A stretch of 19,832 nucleotides of DNA. Origin: a virus. Taxonomy: Duplodnaviria; Heunggongvirae; Uroviricota; Caudoviricetes. This document shows positions 2,179 through 17,896 of the stretch, piece by piece; position 1 is the stretch's first letter, and each line of letters begins with the position of its first letter. The notes under the pieces were generated by a model. That model did no database searches. It saw only the letters and a list, made by a program, of their open reading frames with translations, and was not told where the DNA came from. A program made the translations under genes and the position numbers. Location of the stretch: the IMG/VR virus record IMGVR_UViG_2585427787_000008. One strand, written 5' to 3'.

Positions 2179-2685
2179 TTGAGTATTTTCAATAAACATG
2201 CACACCAGGAACGTCCGTATATCGTCATAGTCGATATTGATGGAACAATATCAGAGGCAACTGAAGACAGACTGCATTTGCTTCCGCCACCAGGTAAAGG
2301 TGCATTAACAAAGGACTGGAACGAGTTTAATCTCGCCTGTGACACCGATACTCCAATCACTCCAGTTATTGATATGGTGCGCCAGTTATTTAACGTTTAC
2401 ACGGTCTGGTTTGTAACCGGGCGCTGTGAGATCGCAAGGGATAAAACACGAGCCTGGCTGCGGAAGTACGTAACAAACGGGGCTGAGCCTTTGCTATCTA
2501 TGCGTCCTGCCACCGATGACAGAAATGACGGCCCAGCAAAGATTGATCTCCTTAAGAAAATTGGTATAAGCAAAATTGCGTTCGCGCTGGAAGATAAGAT
2601 TGAAGTGGCGCGTGTTTTCAGGAGGCACGGCGTGCTTACGTTAATGGTCAGGGAGTATGAAAATGCGCTTCTTCATCAACAATAA
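2179..2685 (+). CDS. Hypothetical HAD-superfamily-like hydrolase/phosphatase (168 aa)
   Basis: TTG start with a strong SD (GAGGAGG, 4-nt spacer). N-terminal IVIVDIDGT matches HAD motif I (DxDGT); VWFVTGR, a downstream Lys and a C-terminal acidic pair (ALEDK) fit motifs II-IV. Fold assignment is inference from motifs only. Confidence 0.55.
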   Translation: MSIFNKHAHQERPYIVIVDIDGTISEATEDRLHLLPPPGKGALTKDWNEFNLACDTDTPITPVIDMVRQLFNVYTVWFVTGRCEIARDKTRAWLRKYVTNGAEPLLSMRPATDDRNDGPAKIDLLKKIGISKIAFALEDKIEVARVFRRHGVLTLMVREYENALLHQQ

Positions 2686-2701
2686 TTGCTCTAATAAATC
2701 A
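2685..2701 (+). promoter_or_regulatory. C1 operator-like site ATTGCTCTAATAAATCA (15/17), with candidate -35 TTGCTC and -10 TAAAAC (2709..2714) reading rightward
   Basis: Operator consensus match starting at the stop codon of the 168-aa ORF; the same block architecture as at 533..583. Confidence 0.6.
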
Positions 2702-2722
2702 TGATTTTTAAAACAGGGAAAG

Positions 2723-2755
2723 TGAAAATAAAAACATGCCGCAAGGCGCGGCATG
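2723..2755 (-). terminator. Intrinsic terminator oriented for minus-strand transcripts (8-bp stem CATGCCGC / GCGGCATG, loop AAGGC, then a U-run in minus-strand sense)
   Basis: Plus strand shows an A-tract 2723..2734 then the hairpin 2735..2755, which on the minus strand is hairpin plus UUUUUAUUUU. It lies downstream of hsdR in minus orientation. Confidence 0.5.
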
Positions 2756-2783
2756 TATCCAATCAATCACAGGAGCTGAAAAT

Positions 2784-2870
2784 ATGAACACGGCATTCAA
2801 AATCATTATGGCCGCGATCTATTTCTGGCTGTTCTCTATCACTTTTGGCGGCATCGTCGCGCATGGGTAA
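2784..2870 (+). CDS. Candidate small hydrophobic peptide, 28 aa (MNTAFKIIMAAIYFWLFSITFGGIVAHG), single predicted transmembrane helix
   Basis: ATG at 2784 preceded by AGGAG with a 7-nt spacer, downstream of the operator-like promoter at 2685..2714. Too short for the ORF track; the call rests on SD quality and context only. Confidence 0.3.
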   Translation: MNTAFKIIMAAIYFWLFSITFGGIVAHG

Positions 2871-2949
2871 GGGGAGTATATTAGCCATTTGAAACCCCAC
2901 GGTCTCTTGCGGGTTTAATTAAGAACCCGCAAGAAAAACACGAATTGGG

Positions 2950-5900
2950 CTATATTTTTCCGCCTACGCCTTTAAACTTCTCAATAAACGAGACGATTTT
3001 CTGGAAAACTGCCTGTTTTTTCGTTTTATATTGCGGATTCAACGGACTAAGTTTTGGTAATGTTTCGTTTAATTCTGTGCCATTTTCTGTGGCATATTCG
3101 CGTTTTAAAGACGTGCGAATATAGCGTTTTGCTGCATCTTCATTGAGATTTTCTTCTTTTATCAATGCTTCTGCTTCACGTTGCTGTTCGCGTTGAGCAA
3201 ACGTAAAGAATGCGTCAATGATGCTGGCTTTGTCCGGTAAATCATCCAGGTTCGTTTGCTGAATAAAATCGACCACCAGGCCCTCTTTAGCACGGTTCCC
3301 TAGGCTTGAACGAATTAAGCGTTTAACCTCTTCGATCATTTCGCCCTTGCCTTTATTTTGTCTGTTGTGTTCGAAAATCAGTCCAAGGATATAATCCAGG
3401 TTTATTTCCTGAGACTTCAGCAAATCGACCTCAAAAACTACGTCATCCCAGTCAGTGGTTGATTTCTCTTTTTTCTCAGCTTCTTTCTCACGGCGCTGCC
3501 AGTCGCGAATATCGTTATAGGCAGAACGATAATCCTGAATCTTGCGATCAGCAGGGAGACGAATTGTTTGCAATTCAGCGAGCTTTTCATCATCCACATA
3601 ATGTTCTGCTTTGAATTTTTCTACTGCAACAGGATCGCTAAGATCGATTTGTTGCAGGGCTTTCAGCGTGGCAAATTCATCATAGTTTTGCAGGATGTTC
3701 TCGGCACGCAGGTATTCACCAAACAGTTTAACGAAGTCTTTCTTCTCTTTTTCACTTTCAATACTGGCAGGGTCAGGGAACCGTTGTTCCAGTTCTGAAA
3801 CTACTGCCATAAAGCCGCGCTTAGCTTCACCAGTGGCAGCATCAGTAAAGCCTTCCATATACTCTGCATAACTCTTTTCTAAAACCACATTTTTGGTGTT
3901 TTTGTCACCAAACAGCGTTATGGCATCAATAGTTGAGCGTTCCAGATCCCGGAAAGTGACGATATTACCGAAGGTTTTAGTTGCATCATAAATACGGTTG
4001 GTGCGGGAAAATGCCTGCATCAAGCCGTGAAAACGCAGGTTTTTATCGACGAATAGCGTGTTCAATGTTGGAGCATCGAAGCCAGTTAAAAACATCCCCA
4101 CGACAATTAACAGATCGATATCCTGATTTTTAACCCGTTGGGCTAAATCGCGATAGTAGTTCTGAAAACCGTTACCGTCGGTGCTGAAGTTAGTTTTAAA
4201 ATAGCTGTTATACTCACGAATTGCAGCGTCAAGAAACTCTTTAGCACTGCTGTCCATTGCGCTGGTATCAAAAGTTTCATCGGAAATTTCACCAATGGCA
4301 TTTTGTTCTTCATTGGCAGCAAAGGAGAAGATTGTCGCAACACGCAGCGGTTTATAGGTAGCCGATTTATTAGCTGCTTCCTCTTGTAACCGTTTAAACG
4401 CCGCGTAATAGGCTTTTGCAGCATCCACGCTGCTCACTGCCAACATAGCATTAAAACCTTTTGAGCCAGGGAAGGTGCGGTGGGTTTTCTGGCGGAAATT
4501 ATTCAGAATATATTGCGTGATTTCCTGTATACGCATGGGATGAAGAAACGCCTGCTGATTTTCAGCCGCACTTAGTTTTTTCTCGTCAGTTTCTGTCTCT
4601 AAAGACTTAAACTGTGGCCGCACATCGTTGTAGTCCACCTTGAATTTGAGCACTTTTTCATCACGAATCGCATCGGTAATTACATACGAATGCAATTCAC
4701 GACCAAATACGCTGGCGGTCGTTTCTGAGCCTAAGGCATTTTCCGGGAAAATAGGGGTGCCGGTAAAACCAAACTGATAATAGCGTTTGAATTTCTTCTT
4801 CAGGTTTTTCTGCGCTTCTCCAAACTGGCTGCGGTGACATTCATCAAATATAAACACCACTTGCTGATTGTATACAGGCAGGTCGCTTTCTGCTTTCATC
4901 AGGTTATTGAGTTTCTGAATAGTAGTGACGATAATTTTGTTATCGTCCTTATCCAGATTTCGTTTAAGGCCTGCGGTATTTTCCGAGCCGTTGACGCTGT
5001 CTGGCGAAAAACGCTGATATTCCTTCATGGTCTGGTAATCGAGGTCTTTCCTGTCGACCACAAAGAAGACTTTATCAATAAAGTCCAGCTCTGTTGCCAG
5101 ACGCGCGGCTTTAAAGCTGGTGAGGGTTTTACCAGAACCGGTAGTGTGCCAGATATACCCACCGCTTTCCGGTTTTGACCAGTTCTTCGCTGTAAAGGAA
5201 CTCTTAATTTTCCACAGAATGCGCTCGGTGGCGGCAATCTGGTACGGTCGCATCACCAGTAGCGTCTGACTACTGTCAAAAACGCTGTAGTTCACCAGAA
5301 CATTCAGCAGAGTATGTTTCTGGAAAAAGGTAGCGGTAAAGTCTTTGAGGTCTTTAATCAGCGTATTGTCTGATTTCGCCCAATTCATGGTGAAGTCAAA
5401 ACTGTTTTTATCGCGCTTTGTCGTGTTGGCAAAATAACGGGTATCGGTGCCGTTAGAAATGACAAACAGTTGCAGATACTTAAACAGGGAATTTTCGTTG
5501 TTAAAACTCTCTTTACTGTAACGATGTATCTGGTTGAAAGCCTCACGAATCGCCACCCCGCGTTTTTTTAGTTCGATTTGCACCAGCGGTAAACCATTAA
5601 CCAGGATCGTGACGTCATAACGGTTAGCATGAGAACCCGTCTGTTCAAACTGCTGGATAATCTGCACCTTATTGCGCATGAGATTCTTTTTATCTATCAA
5701 ATAGATGTTCTCAAGTCGCCCGTCGTCAAAAATAAAGTCGCAGATATAGTCGATATGGATTTTACGGGTTTTATCCAGAATACCATCGCTGGGGTTGTCC
5801 AGATACTGCTCCGTGAAGCGCCGCCACTCGCTGTCATTAAACATCACACCATTGAGGCTCTGAAGCTGTTCCCGAACATTAGACAGCATTGCCGACTGTG

Positions 5901-6066
5901 ATTTTACGGAAATAAATTCATAACCCTGATTCCGCAGGTCCTGAATCAGTTCACGTTCCAGGTCCGATTCGCTCTGGTAGCTGTCGCTTGTTTGCTCAGC
6001 TTTGATGTACTTATCAAGGACGATAAAGTTATTGGATTCAGCAATGGTGTGTGTTTGATGAGTCAT
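2950..6066 (-). CDS. hsdR: Type I restriction enzyme R subunit HsdR (1038 aa), EcoR124-like (family IC)
   Basis: Walker A TGSGKT and DEAH-type FDECHRSQ helicase motifs; N-terminal PD-(D/E)xK-like nuclease residues (YDVTIL ... QIELKK). Length matches EcoR124I HsdR as recalled. A 122-bp gap from hsdS fits a separate hsdR promoter. Confidence 0.93.
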
Positions 6067-6187
6067 AGCGCATCCTTTGTGCCGCCTGGCAAGGGCCGGA
6101 AAGGCGTTAAGAGTGACTTCCGGCGCGTAAAAAATAGTCTATATACAGACCGGATGTTACGATGGTTCGGTCTGTAATAATGGTCAA

Positions 6188-7425
<1,238 letters not shown>

Positions 7426-7429
<4 letters not shown>

Positions 7430-8988
7430 TTCTGCACCTCGCAGCCTTCAATTTCAGCCACAATCGCATCAATATCTTTACGCAACTGGTCGATTTTGCT
7501 GACCGTGGTTTTCAGCTCAGCATTTAGCTCAGCAATATCGATAGTTTCGCGGTTATCTTTCACTTCTACATAGCTGCTCACTGACAGGTTATAGTCATTC
7601 GCGACAACGGCCTCAAACGCGACAGATTTTGCCAGATGGGCAACATCTTCTTTGCTGGAAAATACCTGCATAATTTTTTCGATATGGGCATCGGTCAGGA
7701 TGTTGTTGTTAGTCTCTTTTTTGAACAGTTCGCTGGCGTCAATAAACTGAACTTTGGTATCCGTTTTATGTTTAGACAGCACCAGAATATTTACGGCAAT
7801 GGTGGTGCCAAAGAACAGGTTCGGTGCCAGTGAAATCACGGTTTCGACATAGTTATTGTCAACCAGATACTGACGGATTTTCTGCTCCGCGCCGCCACGG
7901 TAAAAAATGCCCGGGAAGCAGACAATCGCAGCACGACCTTTGGCAGAAAGATAGTTCAGCGCATGTAATACAAACGCAAAGTCAGCTTTGGATTTGGGGG
8001 CCAGAACGCCAGCCGGGGCAAAACGTTCATCGTTAATCAGCGTCGGGTCATCGCTGCCAATCCATTTCACCGAATACGGCGGGTTAGAAACGATGGCATC
8101 AAACGGGTTTTCATCTCTGAAGTGCGGCTCAGTCAGCGTATTGCCCAACTTGATATCAAACTTGTCGTAGTTGATGTTGTGCAAAAACATGTTCATACGC
8201 GCCAGGTTATAGGTCGTATGGTTGATCTCCTGACCAAAAAAGCCTTCTTCGATGATATGGTCATCAAACTGTTTTTTAGCCTGCAACAACAGCGAACCGG
8301 AACCTGCTGCCGGGTCGTAGATTTTGTTAACGTGGGTCTGGCCGTGCATTGCCAGTTGTGCAATCAGCTTAGAGACGTGCTGCGGTGTAAAGAACTCGCC
8401 GCCGGACTTACCGGCATTCGCCGCATAGTTAGAAATCAGGAACTCATAGGCATCGCCGAACAGGTCAATCTGATGTTCGTTGAAGTCGCCAAGTTTTAAT
8501 CCTTCAACCCCTTTCAGAACCGCGGCCAGGCGGGTATTTTTATCCTTAACGGTGTTACCCAGGCGGTTACTGGTGGTATCGAAATCAGCAAACAAACCTT
8601 TGATGTCAGCTTCTGAAGGGTAACCGTAAGCAGAACTTTCGATAGCAACGAAGATGCTGTTTAAATCTGCATTCAGTCTGTCATTGGTATTTGCTTTCGC
8701 AGCTACGTTGCAGAAAAGCTGACTTGGGTAGATGAAGTAGCCTTTGGTTTTGATGGCATCGTCTTTAATGTCATCAGTAATTACGCTGTCATCCAGTTTC
8801 GCATAACAGATGCTGTCATCACCGGCTTCAATATAGCTGGAAAAATTTTCGCTGATAAAACGGTAGAAAAGCGCGCCCAGAACGTATTGCTTAAAATCCC
8901 ATCCATCGACCGAACCTCTGACATCGTTAGCAATTTGCCAGATTTGACGATGAAGCTCTGCACGTTGTTGAATACTTGTCATTTTCAT
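7426..8988 (-). CDS. hsdM: Type I R-M N6-adenine DNA methyltransferase subunit HsdM (520 aa)
   Basis: AdoMet-binding motif [10 protein letters not shown] and catalytic NPPY motif (SNPPYS); N-terminus [17 protein letters not shown] resembles EcoR124I HsdM as recalled; first gene of the minus-strand operon. Confidence 0.93.
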
Positions 8989-9127
8989 CCACTTATTTCA
9001 GGCTTATGTAATTGGATGTGATTCTACAGCAACTTGGATGCTTTAGCAGTTCGGACATTAGGCTACGAATGACCTGCCTAGAGGTTTGTTAAGCCGCAAA
9101 GTGCTGGTGCTTTATGCCTGTGAAGTT

Positions 9128-9160
9128 TATAATTGTGTACACATAACGAGTACACGAGGT
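9128..9160 (+). promoter_or_regulatory. phd-doc promoter/operator region: -10 TATAAT (9128..9133), palindrome GTGTACAC (9135..9142), second half-site GTACAC (9150..9155), SD GAGG
   Basis: A consensus -10 hexamer and palindromic sites sit immediately upstream of phd, consistent with autoregulated TA promoters. Assigning them as Phd-binding sites is inference. Confidence 0.5.
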
Positions 9161-9164
9161 ATTT

Positions 9165-9386
9165 ATGCAATCCATTAACTTCCGTACCGCGCGCGGCAAC
9201 CTTTCTGAAGTGCTCAACAATGTTGAGGCCGGGGAAGAGGTTGAAATCACCCGCAGAGGCCGTGAGCCAGCAGTAATTGTCAGCAAGGCTACTTTCGAAG
9301 CCTACAAAAAAGCGGCGCTGGATGCTGAATTTGCATCCCTGTTTGACACCCTGGACTCCACCAACAAGGAACTGGTTAACCGATAA
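9165..9386 (+). CDS. phd: Antitoxin Phd (prevents host death), 73 aa
   Basis: Protein [49 protein letters not shown]... matches P1 Phd as recalled; stop overlaps the doc start (TAATG). Confidence 0.93.
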
Positions 9387-11022: not shown

Positions 11023-11039
11023 ATTGCTCTAATGTATTG
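11023..11039 (+). promoter_or_regulatory. C1 operator-like site ATTGCTCTAATGTATTG (14/17) upstream of lpa
   Basis: Consensus match directly after the pdcB stop and about 70 bp upstream of lpa; consistent with C1 control of the late activator gene. Confidence 0.6.
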
Positions 11040-15295: not shown

Positions 15296-15312
15296 AGATT
15301 TATTAGTGCATT
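15296..15312 (-). promoter_or_regulatory. Weaker C1 operator-like site (AATGCACTAATAAATCT, 14/17) between coi and c1
   Basis: Minus-strand match carrying the CTAATAAAT core; it overlaps the coi stop. Confidence 0.35.
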
Positions 15313-15759: not shown

Positions 15760-15776
15760 TAATTTATTAGAGCAAT
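15760..15776 (-). promoter_or_regulatory. C1 operator (ATTGCTCTAATAAATTA, 16/17) upstream of coi-c1
   Basis: Near-perfect consensus on the minus strand in the region upstream of coi. Confidence 0.7.
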
Positions 15777-15842: not shown

Positions 15843-15859
15843 ATTGCTCTAATAATTCT
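15843..15859 (+). promoter_or_regulatory. C1 operator-like site ATTGCTCTAATAATTCT (15/17)
   Basis: Consensus match in inverted orientation relative to the site at 15760..15776, 66 bp away. Confidence 0.65.
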
Positions 15860-17395: not shown

Positions 17396-17412
17396 ATTGC
17401 TCTAATTATTTG
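17396..17412 (+). promoter_or_regulatory. C1 operator-like site ATTGCTCTAATTATTTG (14/17)
   Basis: Consensus match 18 bp after the cre stop and 17 bp before the next ORF. Confidence 0.6.
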
Positions 17413-17872: not shown

Positions 17873-17896
17873 ATTGCTCTAATTGATTGCTATAAT
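17873..17896 (+). promoter_or_regulatory. C1 operator-like site ATTGCTCTAATTGATTG (17873..17889, 14/17) overlapping an extended -10 element TGCTATAAT (17888..17896); candidate C1-repressed ref promoter
   Basis: Consensus match plus a TGnTATAAT element; a second degenerate operator-like copy overlaps at 17885..17901. Confidence 0.6.

Follow-up and report, generated by a model that had tools for sequence, protein, structure and literature searches.

A conserved small open reading frame behind the C1 operator Op88 of P1-type phage-plasmids is probably an unnamed single-pass membrane-protein gene

Small single-helix membrane proteins of bacteria, such as AcrZ, MgrB and KdpF, act by binding a larger membrane protein. 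Short hydrophobic one-helix peptides are also the toxins of type I systems (Hok/Gef, Ldr, Ibs, TisB, ShoB, Zor, DinQ and Fst). At the RNA level, stem-loops at the very 5' end stabilise mRNAs, as in the ompA leader. Few phages have been studied as thoroughly as P1, and roughly one in six complete E. coli genomes contains a P1-like phage-plasmid. Its reference annotation places a C1 operator, OpmgT (formerly Op88), behind pap, overlapping two predicted promoters (P2pmgT and P1pmgT), and lists no gene between this operator and pmgT. Here we describe a 28-codon open reading frame (ORF) located in exactly that interval. It was analysed in IMG/VR virus record IMGVR_UViG_2585427787_000008, a stretch of 19,832 nucleotides (nt) that we refer to as the window. 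The window is a P1-type phage-plasmid, and the interval of interest matches phages P1, P7, SJ46, RCS47 and phi456 as well as 875 plasmid records at 95-99% identity. We consider it rather probable that the small ORF is a genuine, conserved and unnamed gene for a single-pass membrane protein, and that it opens the Op88 (pmgT) operon, an early accessory operon under C1 repression, as first cistron. The parts of this module, in window coordinates, are as follows.

2685..2701, plus strand: C1 operator ATTGCTCTAATAAATCA, equivalent to P1 OpmgT (formerly Op88), which is annotated at the same place in P1 (AF234172)
2686..2714, plus strand: promoter block equivalent to P1's predicted P2pmgT (P1 annotation), with -35 TTGCTC and -10 TAAAAC
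2701..2729, plus strand: second promoter, equivalent to P1's predicted P1pmgT (P1 annotation), its spacing kept in five lineages
2734..2756, no strand assigned: leader hairpin ACATGCCGC-AAGGC-GCGGCATGT, with 9 base pairs (bp) on plus-strand RNA and 10 bp on minus-strand RNA, preceded by GAAAATAAAAA
2757..2783, plus strand: CA-rich leader CCAATCAATCAC, with the Shine-Dalgarno (SD) sequence AGGAG at 2771-2775 and an 8-nt spacer
2784..2870, plus strand: small ORF MNTAFKIIMAAIYFWLFSITFGGIVAHG, ATG at 2784 and TAA at 2868-2870, 28 amino acids (aa), one predicted transmembrane helix

In the Op88/OpmgT region of P1, the operator, promoters, hairpin and ORF are all found at the same places as in the window. 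The ORF itself is identical and unannotated there; its stop is separated from the pmgT ATG by GGGGGATGC, a 9-nt gap, and overlaps the SD sequence of pmgT. The window differs from P1 in carrying hsdRSM instead of pmgT-humD, and in having A rather than T as the last base of the operator, which is also the first base of the second -35 element. An earlier preliminary description of this DNA had pointed out a 28-aa hydrophobic ORF behind an SD sequence, with an operator-overlapping promoter-like block directed toward it. Start, stop, peptide and SD position were all as described there, with the exception of the spacer, which had been given as 7 nt and measures 8 nt, and the promoter-like block turned out to be P1's Op88/OpmgT together with the predicted P2pmgT.

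The peptide has a grand average of hydropathy of 1.30, and its best 19-aa hydrophobicity window scores 2.1. The window has 215 ATG-initiated ORFs of 20-60 aa, and no other one combines a strong SD sequence with a hydrophobic 19-aa stretch (Kyte-Doolittle value >= 2.0). Mononucleotide shuffles yielded 0.02 such ORFs per window, and we can therefore conclude that the small ORF is not a chance object. The Prokaryotic Genome Annotation Pipeline (PGAP) used for RefSeq calls a 44-aa hypothetical protein here (WP_001312275.1), starting from ATG 2736. This start codon falls within the hairpin stem, with no SD sequence ahead of it, and the N-terminal extension it implies is missing from other lineages; the PGAP start is probably mis-called and the 28-aa start correct. 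No description of the ORF was found in the published literature on pmgT, Op88, the peptide or WP_001312275, and a P1vir RNA-seq preprint contained nothing on this interval. The peptide had no hits at E <= 10 in Pfam, NCBIfam or PADLOC, and in PHROGs it matched only families of unknown function at E >= 0.05. On the opposite strand, a 45-aa ORF (2763-2900, minus strand) overlaps the small ORF. It was discarded as a candidate gene since it spans the junction between P1 DNA and the cassette described below and cannot exist in P1.

A word-indexed protein search with the P1-type peptide returned relatives at >= 93% identity only, and a capped scan of genome contigs seeded with Pap yielded two nearly identical loci. 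Because these are near-identical they say little on coding, and the matter was decided by divergent comparators, which were found by inspection of phage JK004, by a search seeded with the JK004 peptide and by a profile search. In Cronobacter phage JK004, the same operator, a hairpin, a CAATCAATCAC-GGAGC leader and an ORF at the aligned ATG are located 3' of the pap homologue; this ORF encodes MHLIFKLAITAFYAWMLTVVITSFKPDANMKASRYLGNLSASYDCDQQGDDSL. Two further P1-like lineages, represented by Logan contigs L203 and L204/L205, encode peptides that are 66-71% identical to that of JK004. The profile search, run over 1.84 billion representative proteins, gave 12 members in total, and each one whose context was checked belonged to a P1-like element. 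A fourth clade is represented by a 48-aa protein (P0026) on contig L211. In that contig (3834-4147) pap is absent, and operator, promoter, hairpin, leader and the 48-aa ORF stand directly after pmgS. Finally, scans of IMG/VR and metagenomes with a DNA pattern for the conserved leader produced one true relative, on metagenome contig L216, the other matches being mostly chance.

The architecture of the module is shared by all of these relatives. JK004, L203, L204/L205, L211 and L216 keep the order operator, -35, 17 nt, -10, hairpin, CAATCA leader, GGAG, ATG, and in each lineage compared the operator and the ATG are 102-108 nt apart. In the non-E. coli lineages the small ORF is 48-53 aa long, and its stop overlaps the ATG of the next gene (ATGA), the downstream genes being on the same strand. 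Positions M1, K6, A11 and W15 are invariant, and a hydrophobic helix is retained in all four clades. The preliminary description had named synonymous-site patterns as a way to refute the ORF; these patterns do not refute it. Between the window and L211, the proportion of differing synonymous sites (pS) is 0.81 and that of nonsynonymous sites (pN) 0.25, with 9/6/16 differences at the three codon positions (Fisher p = 0.009). Within the JK004 clade, the ratio of nonsynonymous to synonymous substitution rates (dN/dS) is 0.22-0.39 and stop codons interrupt both other frames. Synonymous sites vary without visible restriction when clades are compared. As judged from these alignments, the frame of the small ORF is clearly under purifying, i.e. 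coding, selection. We define a P1-family small membrane protein here by its position, leader, aligned start, single helix and purifying selection, all of which were found for the window ORF. It resembles AcrZ, MgrB and KdpF in size, in its single helix and in having few conserved residues along that helix. It differs from them in that there is no sequence relationship and no known partner, and in being phage-encoded and repressor-controlled; the likeness is an analogy and we claim no membership.

Our best guess is that the peptide serves as an early, accessory membrane protein, and that its translation in addition feeds the cargo downstream. In this account, C1 would bind the operator, which straddles the pap stop and abuts the -35 element of a sigma-70 promoter. 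Upon derepression, a transcript would start at the foot of the conserved 5' stem-loop, which would protect the mRNA in the way of other 5'-terminal stabiliser hairpins, and would run on via the unstructured CA-rich leader and strong SD sequence into the ORF. The peptide would then insert as a single helix with its N-terminus inside the cell, as suggested by K6. The idea of a small membrane effector that is released when C1 repression is lifted, one of the options in the preliminary description, fits this anatomy of a coding gene with one helix behind a C1 operator and promoter. Since the ORF stop overlaps either the SD sequence of pmgT (P1) or the next start codon (ATGA; other lineages), translation of the ORF appears coupled to that of the variable downstream cargo. 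For those working on P1, the module offers several testable objects: a conserved, selected membrane protein of 28-53 aa heading the Op88 operon, a conserved leader hairpin at the predicted transcript start, and the fixed left border of a hotspot whose cargo includes restriction systems among other accessory genes. For as long as the peptide has no assigned function, the practical import is limited.

Diversity within the P1 group was determined for 80 IMG/VR loci that were retrieved through Pap, so that the sample is unbiased as to the ORF. In these loci, pap had the usual coding signature: its nucleotide diversity (pi) was 0.104 for third codon positions and 0.016 for positions 1+2. For the small ORF, the two main arrangements compared as follows.

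pmgT-type, 56 loci: canonical peptide in 53; diversity ratio of positions 1+2 versus 3 about 0.09 (pap: 0.15)
hsd-type, 20 loci: canonical peptide in 8; diversity ratio of positions 1+2 versus 3 about 0.73

The ORF was open in all 76 loci of both sets. Peptide substitutions were present in 12/20 hsd-type loci versus 3/56 pmgT-type loci (p = 1e-6), with equal pap diversity in both sets; the hsd-type variants included G22D, G23D, G23S, A10T, T20I and others, and the window itself carries the canonical peptide. These numbers are suggestive of relaxed constraint on the peptide after loss of the downstream operon, and in the hsd context the peptide may be vestigial.

Coupling to downstream genes could also mean that ribosome passage is all that matters, for cargo expression or for the prevention of polarity, with a peptide that has no function and, in the window, a dead remnant. 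Consistent with this, the stop overlaps the SD sequence or ATG of the next gene in every same-strand context, one nucleotide after GGGTA is the common starting point of six cargo types, 9-37 unrelated residues freely take the place of the C-terminus, and the constraint is relaxed where hsd replaced the cargo. A peptide without function would be expected to drift in amino-acid sequence, yet four clades keep the hydrophobic helix together with the invariant residues, and both the pN well below pS and the dN/dS of 0.2-0.4 argue for selection on the protein. We therefore regard a purely translated leader as unlikely.

Several observations nevertheless weigh against a functional membrane protein. 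The C-terminus of the peptide is not fixed, as elements with other cargo types have deleted the stop and appended the 9-37 different residues mentioned above, and the ORF is disrupted in a few elements (L084/L116, P0007, P0020, P0027 and P0028). Expression of the ORF is presumed and the promoters are predictions. In a P1 CRISPR interference screen, pap and pmgT, the annotated neighbours of the ORF, were scored non-essential (PMC10695390), so that any role of the ORF would be accessory. The signal of relaxed constraint comes from loci that are not independent, and when counted as events the nonsynonymous to synonymous numbers (9:5 versus 3:3) do not differ significantly. Two further findings are left unaccounted for by our reading. 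In E. coli elements, 1/20 of the third positions in codons 1-20 segregates, versus 68/168 in pap (p = 0.001), and the minus-strand RNA of 2850-2758 folds with -24.4 kcal/mol (z = -2.5), versus -15.3 kcal/mol (z = -0.25) for the plus strand.

The first of these two findings is part of a nearly invariant stretch of 83 nt in E. coli P1-type elements (window 2764-2846), which comprises the SD sequence, the start and codons 1-20; codons 21-28 show normal synonymous diversity. This synonymous freeze may stem from a shallow genealogy of the short segment, or from a constraint at the RNA level. At 2758-2850, coincident with this stretch, the minus-strand RNA forms a long, imperfect stem-loop that contains five G.U pairs. 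This structure was rejected as the cause of the freeze, since polymorphisms keep its pairing in 4 cases and break it in 9. A structured minus-strand RNA of ~75-150 nt ending at 2756-2724, encoded by or pairing with the first 60 nt of the ORF, the leader and the hairpin in E. coli P1-type elements, would explain both the frozen synonymous sites and the better minus-strand fold. If it existed, the module would be an antisense-controlled membrane peptide and, in hsd-type elements, a C1-gated switch that couples prophage induction to hsdR expression; we think it improbable that such an RNA is made.

The leader hairpin itself has a fold with z = -3.0 on the plus strand and z = -4.6 on the minus strand. 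Across five lineages it measures 6-11 bp and begins 4-7 nt past the -10 element. Between lineages, 6/11 stem pairs have changed on both sides with the pairing retained, and three independent changes produce a G.U wobble on plus-strand RNA and an A.C mismatch on the minus strand (2742 C>T in seven P1-type haplotypes, a G.T pair in L204, and GGTCGC/GCGGCC in L216). In the non-E. coli lineages, neither strand has a U-run adjacent to the hairpin. Because the compensatory and wobble changes fit plus-strand RNA, and because this U-run is missing, we conclude that the hairpin has its conserved function in the plus-strand leader. By analogy, it is most likely a 5'-terminal mRNA stabiliser: as with ompA-type stem-loops, a stable hairpin at or near the predicted start is followed by an unstructured leader, and the structure is kept and the sequence is not. 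The difference is that the start is a predicted one here, so that we infer the role of the hairpin. Between lineages, the leader and SD block that follows is almost invariant, and it is unpaired in every fold. In the non-E. coli lineages, hairpin loops of 9 nt (L111 2673-2681, L203, L204 and L211 3948-3956) share a common pattern (ACGCTATCA, GCACTACCA, GCGCTTCCA) on stems that differ, and may serve as recognition loops; the P1-type loop, AAGGC, is shorter.

On the minus strand, the 10-pair stem (2756-2734) is directly followed by TTTTTATTTT down to 2724, the form of an intrinsic terminator on the hsdR strand. A consensus scan identified it as the only terminator-like site in 2500-3100, in agreement with the preliminary description, and as the only strong one in 2700-9200. 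Its terminator-like look arises because the hairpin adjoins the A-rich -10 region. To judge from this predicted terminator, the leader hairpin very probably stops hsdR transcripts in hsd-type elements, as a secondary use. The gene hsdR (2950-6066, minus strand) is indeed convergent with the ORF, as had been noted before, and an hsdR read-through transcript ending at 2756-2724 would be antisense to the whole small ORF.

The preliminary description had likened the layout to a type I toxin-antisense arrangement. In such a pair, a cis-antisense RNA would neutralise the mRNA of a membrane toxin; this RNA would be the hsdR 3' untranslated region (UTR) or a dedicated small RNA ending at 2756-2724. 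The product is indeed a one-helix hydrophobic peptide from the only SD-preceded, transmembrane-like ORF of the window, an antisense transcript is geometrically possible, and P1, too, has kept the canonical minus-strand terminator although no gene converges on it there. The better fold of minus-strand RNA 2850-2758 and the frozen synonymous sites of codons 1-20 in E. coli elements point in the same direction, with the reservation that polymorphisms break that pairing more often than they keep it (9 versus 4) and that synonymous sites vary freely between clades. Matches to GcvB (20 bits) and isrK on the minus strand were sub-threshold, as were all matches in the Rfam scan, and were driven by the terminator. 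A CATAAT at 2810-2805 on the minus strand has no -35 element, and a simple scan, which a weak promoter could escape, found no sigma-70-like minus-strand promoter between the terminator and hsdR (2757-2950). The peptide matched neither Hok, Ldr, Ibs, TisB, ShoB or Fst nor any other family in Pfam, NCBIfam, PHROGs or PADLOC. Unlike a folded toxin mRNA, the mRNA beyond the 5' hairpin folds no better than shuffled sequences (z = -0.33 and 0.06), and the SD sequence is unpaired in all five lineages. Furthermore, the peptide promoter is C1-repressed, in P1 and its relatives translation of the ORF is coupled to that of the genes downstream, and no convergent partner exists in P1, JK004, L203, L204/L205 or L211, the non-E. 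coli hairpins being devoid of a U-run. A type I pair thus seems very unlikely to us, which removes a tempting toxin-antitoxin reading and leaves the conserved membrane-protein gene as the preferred one.

The position of hsdR opposite the ORF is better understood from the neighbouring genes, which are listed below.

2179..2685, plus strand: pap (3'-phosphatase / polynucleotide kinase-phosphatase family), P1 pap annotation, 98% identity
2875..9082, minus strand: type IC hsd cassette of ~6.2 kb, EcoR124I/EcoDXXI-type, with hsdR 2950-6066, hsdS 6188-7429 and hsdM 7426-8988
2905..2934, no strand assigned: second hairpin, 12-13 bp, free energy about -20 kcal/mol, z = -4 to -6, in the hsdR 3' UTR

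The pap stop (TAA, 2683-2685) touches the C1 operator. DNA identity to P1 is 98% as far as window 2874, four bases beyond the stop of the small ORF, and the hsd cassette stands in place of P1 84483-87968 (pmgT-pmgU-pmgV-upfMNO-hot-lxr-humD). Its left junction, 2874|2875, lies directly after TAAGGGG, and at the right junction (~9083) P1 homology resumes just before phd-doc. Reportedly, P1-like flanks of the EcoDXXI hsd locus were already described by Tyndall et al. in 1997. This work appears as reference 364 in a later article (PMC12707154). The GenBank notes of P1 (AF234172) name P1 84263-84482 as the downstream flank and 87969-88647 as the upstream flank of the EcoDXXI hsd locus, and the window flanks are P1 up to 84482 and from 87969, exactly as noted in that record. 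The replaced segment corresponds to 'variable region 8' of P1-like phage-plasmids (PMC9603915). HsdR of the window matches HsdR of EcoR124I (PDB 2w00) over its full length (1038 aa, 2273 bits). Type IC hsd loci with P1 flanks (EcoR124I, EcoDXXI and EcoprrI) have the same arrangement as the window, with no difference; in the records that could be read, the flank was treated as sequence homology only and the small ORF was named as a gene in none.

The convergent layout of ORF and hsdR is therefore an already known junction, that of a type IC cassette within the P1 backbone. We propose that an inverted hsdRSM cassette replaced pmgT-humD and would have orphaned the promoter-leader-ORF module, which now converges with hsdR. 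The opposed position of hsdR and the ORF results from this replacement, as a by-product and not as a toxin-antitoxin design, and the earlier suggestion of a designed arrangement with hsdR does not hold, as the module is present without a convergent gene in P1 and four other lineages. That the leader hairpin and the A-rich -10 region would terminate hsdR transcripts well is then fortuitous, and the overlap in antisense a secondary consequence.

The module was present in 890/5426 complete E. coli genomes, with the full hsd-type arrangement in 221 of these, and 257/875 plasmid records were of the hsd type. Such an arrangement could have been exapted: in hsd-type elements, the C1-gated promoter would fire into the hsdR 3' end and lower HsdR upon induction, the ORF being incidental. 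This would amount to restriction alleviation at prophage induction, either via convergent transcription or via antisense RNA. There is no plus-strand terminator between the ORF and hsdR, the first weak terminator-like site being at 3566-3583, the arrangement is common as the above numbers show, and operator, promoter and ORF are intact in 20/20 hsd-type loci examined. For this switch, however, there is no direct evidence, and the conserved -35 element is weakened in the lineage of the window (TTGATT to ATGATT), which would be unexpected for a selected promoter. An untranslated antisense RNA would also be exposed to Rho termination. On non-P1 plasmids, hsd is accompanied by an IS1-truncated remnant of the ORF, from window 2791 on and without promoter, and the hsd cassette therefore does not need the module. 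We consider such a switch unlikely and retain the view of an accessory membrane-protein gene that was orphaned by cassette replacement.

One of these non-P1 plasmids is pEcIMT16316 (L212; NZ_CP023816.1), where the hsdR flank (1749-2660) retains the ORF from window 2791 on, cut by IS1A. A pair resembling a cyclic-oligonucleotide-based anti-phage signalling system (CBASS), consisting of a SMODS nucleotidyltransferase and an S-4TM effector, adjoins IS1 there. According to the P1 GenBank note, flank homology of R124/3 starts at the same coordinate as this remnant (P1 84399).

The hairpin between the peptide stop and the hsdR stop codon (2950-2952, minus strand) had been described before as a 10-bp stem at 2906..2933. 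It is present, with the larger dimensions given above (2905-2934, 12-13 bp). It is centred on TTAATTAA, belongs to the cassette and was seen in hsd-type loci only. Neither strand has a U-run next to it, and it is no canonical terminator in either direction.

Downstream of the ORF, at least six contexts diverge at one nucleotide, after ...CATGGGTA (window 2869; GGGTA). Apart from pmgT and the hsd cassette, they comprise the context of L065 and three distinct arrays of same-strand genes, in which Ead/Ea22 and DUF551 genes abound (loci L001, L065, L206, L208 and L209). P1 and the hsd type share four additional bases past the divergence point (window 2865-2875 region). Several cargo variants lack the stop codon and add 9-37 unrelated residues, so that a cargo hotspot has its fixed left border at the end of the ORF. 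This fixed border could result either from a site-specific mechanism or from selection at the gene border.

With respect to the control region, the operator agrees with the 17-bp asymmetric C1 consensus ATTGCTCTAATAAATTT at 15/17 positions and with P1 Op88 at 16/17, and it is conserved, overlapping a promoter, across all five lineages compared; for Op88, the P1 record refers to earlier deposits. Judged by this conservation, the second promoter (2701-2729) is better kept than the 2686-2714 block, whose P2pmgT-equivalent -10 element is poorly conserved in other lineages. The -35 element of the second promoter (2701-2706) reads ATGATT in the window and TTGATT or TTGTTT elsewhere, and its -10 element (2724-2729) reads GAAAAT in the window and CAGAAT, AATAAT or AAGAAT elsewhere, the two being separated by a 17-nt spacer. 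Its -35 element lies directly after the operator, sharing position 2701 with it, and its predicted transcript start is the foot of the leader hairpin; promoter use and start are predictions from the sequence. The A at 2701 changes the final base of the operator and gives the -35 element the sequence ATGATT instead of the conserved TTGATT. It replaces the T of P1 and of 79/79 readable IMG/VR loci, and was seen, among the sequences examined, only in the window, phi456 and pLR-64-1_1. A P1 late promoter within the ORF was ruled out, as there is no -22 box of the AAGTTACTT type found at LPhot. In the window as a whole we counted 9 C1-operator-like sites, versus 0.2 expected by chance. The other eight are located at 544-560, 593-609, 11023-11039, 15296-15312, 15760-15776, 15843-15859, 17396-17412 and 17873-17889; the first two (544-609) are the counterparts of P1 Op86a/b, which lie upstream of pmgR.

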